A DNA stretch of 64,000 nt from NCBI RefSeq assembly GCF_017348835.2, contig NZ_CP071375.1. The stretch is one strand, 5' to 3'. The DNA is from Escherichia coli (GTDB lineage: Bacteria > Pseudomonadota > Gammaproteobacteria > Enterobacterales > Enterobacteriaceae). Position numbers: made by a program. Below, piece by piece: positions 57,001-60,000 of this stretch. How positions within the stretch are numbered: position 1 is the stretch's first letter; the number at the start of each line of letters is the position of its first letter.

Positions 57001-60000
57001 AGCAATGATCTGAGCACAGCCCATCACATTCGGCGCATGTTTAAGTAAGTAACCGTTACCTGCAAGAATGATGGGAACAGCGCCACGCATCACCTGCCAT
57101 AACGGAAAATTCCACGGCATAATCGCCAGAATCGTCCCCAACGGTCGATACTCAATAACTGCCTGCTGATTTTCCACCAGCGTAGGTTCCGCCTTCAGCA
57201 TTGCCGGACCATGTTCTGCATACCATTCACACAAATTCGCCGATTTCGCCACTTCAGCGCGCGCCTGGTTGATTGGTTTGCCCATTTCACGGGTGATCAT
57301 TTGCGCCATTTCTTCGCTACGGGCGCGCAGAGCCTTACCGATATCACGCAGTTTTTCAGCACGATAATCTATATTTGTCTCGCGCCAGTCGCGAAAGCCT
57401 GCTGCCGCCAGCTGAAGTGCGTTTTCGATATCATCAGCACCAGCCCACGGCAGCACAGAAAGTTGTTCACCCGTGGCAGGATTTATCGAAATTGCATGAG
57501 TTGCCGGAGTAATGGTCATCGGGGTATCTCCTTTATGAGTCATGGTATGAAGATACGCAGATTTACTCTTGCTTTAAAATGAATAATATTAAGCCACTTA
57601 TTCACGAATCGAGAATATTATGGATCTGACCCAACTGGAGATGTTCAACGCGGTTGCCGAAGCTGGCAGCATTACGCAGGCTGCAGCAAAAGTGCATCGC
57701 GTGCCGTCGAATCTCACTACCCGTCTACGCCAGCTGGAAACAGAACTGGGGGTAGATCTGTTTATTCGCGAGAATCAGCGTTTACGTCTCTCTCCTGCCG
57801 GGCATAACTTTTTACGCTATAGCCAACAAATTCTCGCGTTAGTGGATGAAGCGCGGAGCGTTGTCGCTGGCGATGAGCCGCAAGGTTTATTTTCTCTGGG
57901 TTCGCTGGAAAGCACCGCAGCAGTTCGCATTCCGGCCACGCTGGCGGAATTCAACCGTCGTTATCCCAAAATTCAGTTTTCACTTTCCACCGGCCCTTCC
58001 GGCACTATGCTGGAAGGTGTGCTGGAGGGAAAACTTAATGCGGCGTTTATTGATGGACCCATTAACCATACTGCCATTGACGGAATACCGGTATACCGCG
58101 AGGAGCTGATGATCGTCACGCCACAAGGTCATGCGCCAGTAATCCGTGCCAGTCAGGTTAATGGCAGTAACATTTATGCCTTCCGCGCCAATTGTTCGTA
58201 TCGTCGCCACTTCGAGAGCTGGTTTCATGCTGACGGTGCCGCTCCGGGAACTATCCATGAGATGGAGTCTTATCACGGAATGTTGGCCTGTGTGATCGCA
58301 GGAGCAGGCATTGCGCTTATTCCGCGCTCTATGCTGGAAAGTATGCCGGGGCATCACCAGGTTGAAGCATGGCCGTTAGCCGAGCAATGGCGTTGGTTAA
58401 CAACCTGGCTGGTCTGGCGTCGTGGTGCGAAAACGCGTCCGCTCGAGGCATTTATTCATCTGCTGGATGTGCCTGACTCGGCAAAACAGGGTTATCAATG
58501 AGCTATTTTTGATAGTTCTTGCGGCTAATATGCTCTATATAGTGATGTTCCGATGACTTATGACTATATGGGGCAAATATGGTTACGCCAGTAAGCATCA
58601 GCAATTACATATCTCTTCCTGAAGATTTTCCCGTACGTAATATTGCACCTCAGGTAAAAGAAGTTTTAAAGGATTTTATTGATGCACTTAGTACAATAAT
58701 ATGTGATGAAGAGTGGCGCACGTCTTTAAACATCAACTCAGCCACAAAAAAGATATTTAATAACCTTGACAACTTATCATATATTCAGAGGACTTCTTTT
58801 CGGGGTAACGACACGCTATACAATGAAAAGGTTCAGTTTAAACTCACTTATCCCGCCAGGAATGGAAGACACAAAGAAAATATTGAATTTCAGGTAGTAA
58901 TAAATTTAAGCCCTATTTATTTAGATAATTTCCGCCATGATGGAGAAATTAATATTTTTTGCGCTCCCAACCCAAAGCCTGTCACTATGGGGCGCGTATT
59001 TCAGACCGGCGTCGAGCGTGTGCTATTTCTGTTTCTGAATGATTTTATTGAACAATTTCCAATGATCAACCTTGGTGTTCCCATCAAAAGAGCGCATACA
59101 CCACATATTGAACCCCTGCCTCCGGATCACCATACCGCTGCAGATTACTTACGCCAGTTTGATTTGCTTGTCCTGAATTTTATCTCTCGCGGTAATTTTG
59201 TCATACTCCCCCGATTATGGAATAACTCTGAGGTTCACAGATGGTTCGTCAATAAAGATCCTAACTTGATCACCGCCATTCTCGACATAGCGGACAGCGA
59301 ATTAAAAGAGGATTTATTGCAAAGCCTGATGGATTCATTAGGTTCTAACAAACATGTACTACCCGAAGTCTGCATCTGCTTTTTATCCCTTTTAGCAGAA
59401 CAAGATTTTCCACATTTTCAGGACTTTTTTTATTTTTCGCCAATATGTTATTGCACTATCACCAATTTATGAATCCCAATGAAAGTGATTTGAATGACGT
59501 GTTAATGCCAGCATCATTAAGTGATGATAAAATTATCAAACATATGGCGCGCAAGACCCTCAAACTTTTTGTAAAAAATGAAACACCGCCAAAAGTTACT
59601 CATGAAGACCTGGTGAAAAACAGGCCTCGCTCCCCTGTCAGACCACCTATACCCGCAACCTCCAAAACGCCAGACATTCCTGATCGTCATTAAACCGTGA
59701 TGTTTACCATCTCTCTGACGCGTGAAAGAATCAGCGTCAGAGAAACGGAAAACGCGATCCAGATCACAAATGCATTGTATTCACATCATTAACCGTTTTA
59801 AGATCATTTCATCACTTTTTCGCAACTCACCCGATAATCTGTTATGACAACAAACACTGTTTCCCGCAAAGTGGCGTGGCTACGGGTCGTTACGCTGGCA
59901 GTCGCCGCCTTCATCTTCAACACCACCGAATTTGTCCCTGTTGGCCTGCTCTCTGACATTGCGCAAAGTTTTCACATGCAAACCGCTCAGGTCGGCATTA

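Follow-up and report, generated by a model that had tools for sequence, protein, structure and literature searches.

The yneK gene in the analyzed stretch of E. coli DNA (64,000 nucleotides of contig NZ_CP071375.1, here called the window) is broken into two overlapping ORFs and very probably represents a genuine, inherited loss-of-function allele that was made in two steps, from TTGTTTTT via an uninterrupted run of eight thymines (T8) to a run of seven (T7). The first step would be a G-to-T transversion that turns TTG TTT TT into an unbroken T8 and exchanges Leu283 for Phe, with the gene still intact; in the second step, slipped-strand mispairing in replication would cut T8 to T7 and shift the reading frame after codon 284. 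The sequences compared show the position and nature of the lesion, the T8 intermediate, the inheritance of T7 among relatives and its recurrence, and the other yneK lesions in the species; replication slippage as the physical mechanism of the contraction, for which we draw on established knowledge, and the loss of YneK function in the T7 allele are what we infer. The locus would then provide a clean small example of a point substitution that creates a homopolymer, which later becomes a recurrent frameshift hotspot.

The pseudogene occupies positions 58579..59693 of the plus strand and comprises 1115 bp, versus 1116 bp in intact alleles. The original prediction had placed two ORFs in different frames at this site, and its coordinates turned out to be exact: ORF1 (58579..59472, plus strand, 297 codons) encodes 284 residues identical to those of the T8 allele, followed by an out-of-frame tail and the stop codon TGA, and ORF2 (59445..59693, plus strand, 82 codons) equals residues 290-371 of native YneK. 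The two overlap by 28 nt, and their combined span of 1115 bp is indeed one base below the 1116 bp expected from a gene length of 371 codons, which is right: yneK of K-12 DH5alpha is a single 1116-bp CDS (371 aa plus stop), i.e., one intact reference gene and not two genes of these sizes. A zone that is open in the frames of both ORF1 and ORF2 (-1) extends over 59349..59472 on the plus strand; its beginning, which is also the start given in the original prediction, is the first codon past the last stop of the ORF2 frame (59349).

In a profile search, ORF1 matched positions 1-286 of the NCBIfam model NF033404 ("putative protein YneK," an equivalog of 371 positions with a curated cut-off of 40 bits) with an E value of 1.5e-191 and 636 bits, and ORF2 matched positions 290-371 with an E value of 5.5e-43 and 147 bits. 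Both ORFs passed the cut-off, and K-12 YneK scored 814 bits over positions 1-371. The match of two ORFs to one YneK profile is far beyond chance, and since they cover pieces of the same 371-position profile, they are two parts of one gene. With one base added to the T-run, an ORF of 371 aa is obtained again. The gene order glsB-sad-ptrR-yneK-ydeA-marC-marRAB is common to the strains PE164, K-12, O157, F2_81, TB06052, and ET350, and yneK of the window keeps the position of its family between ptrR/yneJ and ydeA. What it lacks is the single uninterrupted ORF of ~371 codons: its frame is lost past codon 284, with the first stop at codon 298. The gene is therefore to be classified as a pseudogene of the YneK family and not as a functional member, and the 82-codon ORF is evidently the orphaned 3' end of yneK rather than a separate gene. 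There is no sign of ORF2 being a transcription unit of its own; a promoter scan of 58400-59900 returned promoter-like sites at the level of the shuffled background (6 versus 4.4±1.6), and a terminator scan of the same region found none. In the annotation, both ORFs should be merged into one frameshifted yneK pseudogene instead of being listed as two hypothetical proteins.

The frameshift site is the T7 run at 59425..59431 (plus strand), where the nearest intact relatives carry T8 and most E. coli strains read TTGTTTTT. The single-base deletion that had been proposed to split yneK was confirmed by alignment with reference genomes, which puts the missing base in this run: K-12 and O157 read GAC TTG TTT TTA TTT TTC, and the window reads GAC-T7-ATTTTTC. 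In an alignment of seven sequences, GAC-T7-A is found in the window and PE164, GAC-T8-A in F2_81, and GAC-TTGTTTTT-A in TB06052, ET350, K-12, and O157. The T5 run at 59433..59437 (plus strand), which the original prediction had named beside T7 as an indel site, has no part in the lesion; it does not vary among the 7 sequences that were aligned over it, and none of the variable sites in a comparison of 15 yneK sequences falls within 59433-59437. Loss of a G, the reading that results from comparison with K-12 and O157 alone, was dropped since the nearest relative, F2_81, carries T8.

In the T8 allele (WP_053884475.1 of the pig strain F2_81), TTG is replaced by TTT (Leu283Phe) and the 371-aa frame is intact. 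F2_81 is 99.9% identical here and differs from the window by 2 SNPs and one T over 7.2 kb and, within yneK, by one T only. T8 is also present on 7 further contigs among the closest intact relatives, and the T8 protein occurs in 151 blocks of a public collection (24 contigs read; 78 contigs by cluster count). The next closest strain, TB06052 (99.1% identity over the 1,261-nt yneK query), shares the window haplotype at 59406-59412 and keeps TTG. The proposal of a homopolymer indel holds because the closest intact relatives carry T8 and the only change in yneK of the window relative to their allele is T8 to T7; it does not apply to the common reference site, which reads TTGTTTTT and is not a homopolymer. 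The earlier reading of a split yneK is thus upheld in a refined form, with the data supporting that the homopolymer itself was made by substitution.

A table of 13 near-identical haplotypes and four outgroups provides the framework for the history of the run. Three derived flank SNPs (59709, 61236, and 61432) define a subclade in which F2_81 and the contigs L014 and L018 carry T8, and the window, PE164, L011, and L013 carry T7. In contig L012, T7 resides on the ancestral flank haplotype (G-G-G), which is the same as that of five T8 contigs; the window lineage has T7 on both flank haplotypes (G-G-G in L012, A-A-A elsewhere), each of them with T8 members. Most parsimoniously, this lineage started out with T8 and underwent at least two contractions to T7, with recombination as the alternative. 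Parsimony across the 13 closely related haplotypes also favors the order T8 to T7 over a deletion of the G followed by a T7-to-T8 repair, a pattern that recombination could blur. A second haplogroup with a T-run, separated from the window by differences at 28-37 sites of yneK, comprises T7 strains (TKEC21-17, 2024CK-00475, and UK_Dog_Liverpool) as well as T8 strains (CAVP776, which is intact, JNEC-KY172, N5D43, and BS15R-A). Since T7 is found on several haplotype backgrounds, the contraction has recurred several times, just as slipped-strand mispairing at an 8-nt run would predict.

A cluster of three substitutions at 59406-59412 (GATTTTCCAC versus GAATCTCCTC), located 13-19 nt upstream of the T-run, is common to the window lineage and TB06052, is partly present in T-HYM1, and marks a distinct local haplotype. 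The T8-creating G-to-T exchange exists on both 59406-59412 haplotypes and therefore arose twice or was moved by recombination. The window has a private synonymous SNP at 58369 (ptrR codon 250, GCA versus GCG in all 16 other sequences) and further private SNPs at 14015, 34972, and 53043; on account of these four sites, its strain is distinct from every relative compared.

The inactivation in the window is evidently one of many independent events, and yneK, an AT-rich orphan gene, is dispensable and decaying across the species. In O157, the gene contains a GAA-to-TAA nonsense mutation, with the first stop read at codon 263. A T6 run (58950..58955, plus strand; gene nt 372-377), which is intact in the window, represents a second frameshift site elsewhere: T6 is shortened to T5 in five sampled genomes (DETEC-S565, BS15R-A, UK_Dog_Liverpool, JNEC-KY172, and N5D43), and UK_Dog_Liverpool combines this frameshift with T7. 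A deletion in E2348/69 leaves yneK as an annotated 102-bp stub, and about 1,184 of 5,417 genomes retain just the first 164 nt of the query (approximately the first 85 nt of yneK). Disrupted alleles accounted for 21 of the 40 rows in an even-step sample of the ranking (9 stubs, 10 frameshifted, and 2 O157-type). Eight of the frameshifted rows (H1, H14, H16, H18, H19, H21, H24, and H28) were sequence-checked and two (H20 and H29) are inferred or unverified, and one O157-type row was sequence-checked and one inferred, with at least 11 of the 21 disrupted rows checked directly.

An intact single-ORF yneK is present in K-12, F2_81, TB06052, ET350, CAVP776, and T-HYM1. The dN/dS of intact alleles is 0.12-0.34, versus mostly 0.02-0.13 in the neighboring genes sad, ptrR, ydeA, and marC, and the GC content of yneK is 0.36-0.43, versus 0.51-0.54 in the flanks; yneK can be regarded as a real coding gene under weak constraint. 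Neither YneK nor its two fragments had a Pfam hit above the threshold (best E≈0.16, well short of the gathering scores). The gene has been called uncharacterized (PMC11540155) and is described as widespread in E. coli and Shigella, with no or sporadic occurrence elsewhere (PMC12757027). One pangenome association study found the yneK gene cluster to be associated with epithelial adherence but gave no mechanism (PMC11540155), and the repeated loss of yneK matters for such association work on its presence or absence. A literature search for yneK yielded no paper on frameshift alleles of the gene. The frameshifted gene as such is already known, with the identical sequence annotated in RefSeq and the allele contained in hundreds of genomes.

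The predicted product of the T7 allele has 297 residues, 284 in the native frame and 13 aberrant ones (YFSPICYCTITNL), and is devoid of the native 87 C-terminal residues. The lost part ends in a tail rich in proline and lysine (…NRPRSPVRPPIPATSKTPDIPDRH), which is possibly disordered, and the truncated protein might keep some activity. Directly upstream of ORF2 (TTTTCGCCAAT ATG), no Shine-Dalgarno-like sequence is visible. In the ATGA motif at 59469..59472 (plus strand), the ORF1 stop TGA (59470-72) overlaps an ATG of the ORF2 frame (59469-71), from which a gene caller predicts a 74-codon ORF in sister contigs (L011 3891-4115). This stop-start overlap is a product of chance, and reinitiation at the site is conceivable.

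Runs of seven or eight thymines are classic error sites of long-read and flow-based platforms, and the strain might truly carry T8 with the homopolymer under-called in sequencing or assembly, all the more as T8 is found in F2_81, the nearest complete genome; the gadB frameshift of PE164 and the C10/C11 difference between PE164 and the window may hint at imperfect polishing in the PE164 record. However, the original suspicion of a homopolymer read error is unsupported, since the same T7 allele occurs in many independent assemblies. Gene LZG51_RS12535 of the pig strain PE164 (NZ_CP114128.1) has the same T7, is 100% identical over the 1,261-nt yneK query, and has been annotated by PGAP as "putative protein YneK, frameshifted." That the window and PE164 are one and the same record was considered and rejected, because 7 SNPs, 2 small indels (a TA in gadB and one C-run), and a 1,488-bp IS3-adjacent segment distinguish them over 64 kb. 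T7 is found in five related but nonidentical sequences (the window, PE164, L011, L012, and L013), including NCBI drafts and a Logan SRA assembly; GCA_019365205.1, GCA_002229695.1, and Logan ERR14374684 carry T7, each with private flank SNPs, and the exact 297-aa product is encoded on 13 independent draft or SRA contigs of a public protein collection. T7 also tracks the flank SNPs in the window subclade, as an inherited allele should: the derived T at 62355 is shared by the T7 members window, PE164, and L011, and these and L013 have A-A-A flanks. Among 5,426 complete genomes of E. coli, 352 contained an exact match to a 68-mer with T7 and 769 to its T8 counterpart (with at most 4 partial hits each); in a 68-nt query, one mismatch or gap puts the identity below 99%, and these are hence exact matches. 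Judging from the relatives that share it, the T7 allele is in all likelihood inherited and common, and an error specific to the window assembly is very unlikely.

A truly inherited T7 could still yield full-length YneK if -1 ribosomal frameshifting or RNA polymerase slippage on U7/T7 served as a regulated device. ORF2 lies in the -1 frame with respect to ORF1, which is the direction needed, a shift anywhere within T7 would give the exact F2_81 protein (…QDFFLFFANM…), and a stem-loop of -16.9 kcal/mol starts ~7 nt past the run. Nevertheless, the ORF1 frame reads GAC TTT TTT TAT, and by eye neither of the heptamers C_TTT_TTT and T_TTT_TAT is a canonical X_XXY_YYZ; the stem-loop lacks significance (z=-1.75; 11 of 200 shuffled sequences gave a fold of equal or greater stability) and consists of ordinary ancestral coding sequence that is present in intact alleles. 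Efficient transcriptional slippage in E. coli requires runs of more than 7, which also counts against such a device, and the two-ORF state is derived and recurrent instead of conserved among homologues, making recoding exceedingly improbable. The T8 run might alternatively be a selected switch for YneK, with T8 as the ON and T7 as the OFF state of a phase-variable contingency locus. The polymorphic tract length within one near-clonal haplotype set, the repeated origin of T7, the abundance of both states (~770 T8 and ~350 T7 complete genomes), and the association of the yneK cluster with adherence (PMC11540155) would fit this scenario, but the haplotype patterns seen require no OFF-to-ON reversal, most E. 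coli strains are without the tract and read TTGTTTTT, and UK_Dog_Liverpool has two frameshifts at once. Moreover, other lineages carry irreversible lesions (nonsense, other frameshift, and deletion), which are the signature of neutral decay and not of a maintained switch, and we give phase variation hardly any credence. Taken jointly, there is a slim chance that T8/T7 is a reversible switch or that T7 strains make useful protein, be it by low-level -1 or transcriptional slippage or as two polypeptides, i.e., a 297-aa N-terminal fragment and then a 74-aa C-terminal fragment reinitiated at the ATGA (59469-59472). If true, the two-ORF arrangement would represent a functional mode of expression of an uncharacterized gene, linked to adherence in one association study, and not a dead gene. 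The preferred interpretation is that of an inherited, nonfunctional allele.

Several other sites of the window differ from its relatives. In the hipA region (36108-36547), the window is without 1,488 bp of PE164 (L007 34619-36106), a segment that covers the greater part of an IS3-family element and some of the hipA 3' fragment. F2_81, with an intact hipA, has nothing that corresponds to ~438 bp of the window (36110-36547); the pattern looks as if an IS had inserted into hipA and an IS-adjacent deletion had then occurred in the window strain. The gadB gene (~12187-13587, minus strand) has a 2-bp TA insertion in PE164 (indel site 12569), where it is annotated as "frameshifted," and translates intact into 466 aa in the window, which is without the insertion; the TA is either a private mutation of PE164 or a polishing error in that record. 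An autotransporter pseudogene of the window contains a C10 run at 38902-38911, versus C11 in PE164, which is a further case of homopolymers differing in length between near-identical strains. At 62355 (marR codon 140), a G-to-T exchange results in MarR Lys140Asn in the window, PE164, L011, and L018, while residue 140 is Lys in F2_81, K-12, and the outgroups; compared with K-12, both the window and F2_81 have Ser for Gly at residue 103 and His for Tyr at residue 137 of MarR. The genes ddpA (~2460-4010) and that of a diguanylate cyclase by yneG (~53225-54643) are internal-stop pseudogenes in the annotation of the near-identical PE164 and F2_81 records, according to which yneK is probably not the only pseudogene of the window.

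With respect to known counterparts, yneK of K-12 (b1527; UniProt P76150) lies in the same ptrR (yneJ)-ydeA locus and is 97.9% identical over the 1,261-nt query, but it is an intact 371-codon ORF with TTG at codon 283, in contrast to the T7 run and premature stop of the window. PE164 has the same T7 pseudogene in a separate record. The T8 allele WP_053884475.1 of F2_81 and its relatives is the immediate parent allele, from which that of the window is obtained by removal of one T. A 1-nt change in a mononucleotide run, repeated in independent lineages, is likewise known from homopolymer pseudogenes and from the simple-sequence contingency loci of Haemophilus, Neisseria, and Campylobacter. Unlike in contingency loci, however, the tract of yneK is short and absent from most strains, the gene has also been lost irreversibly, and there is no evidence of reversibility or selection. 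Programmed -1 frameshifting of the dnaX type uses the heptamer A_AAA_AAG together with an upstream Shine-Dalgarno-like element and a downstream hairpin. As in dnaX, the downstream frame of yneK would be regained through a -1 shift within a homopolymeric run, whereas a canonical in-phase heptamer and a significant stimulator are missing and the arrangement is a derived one.
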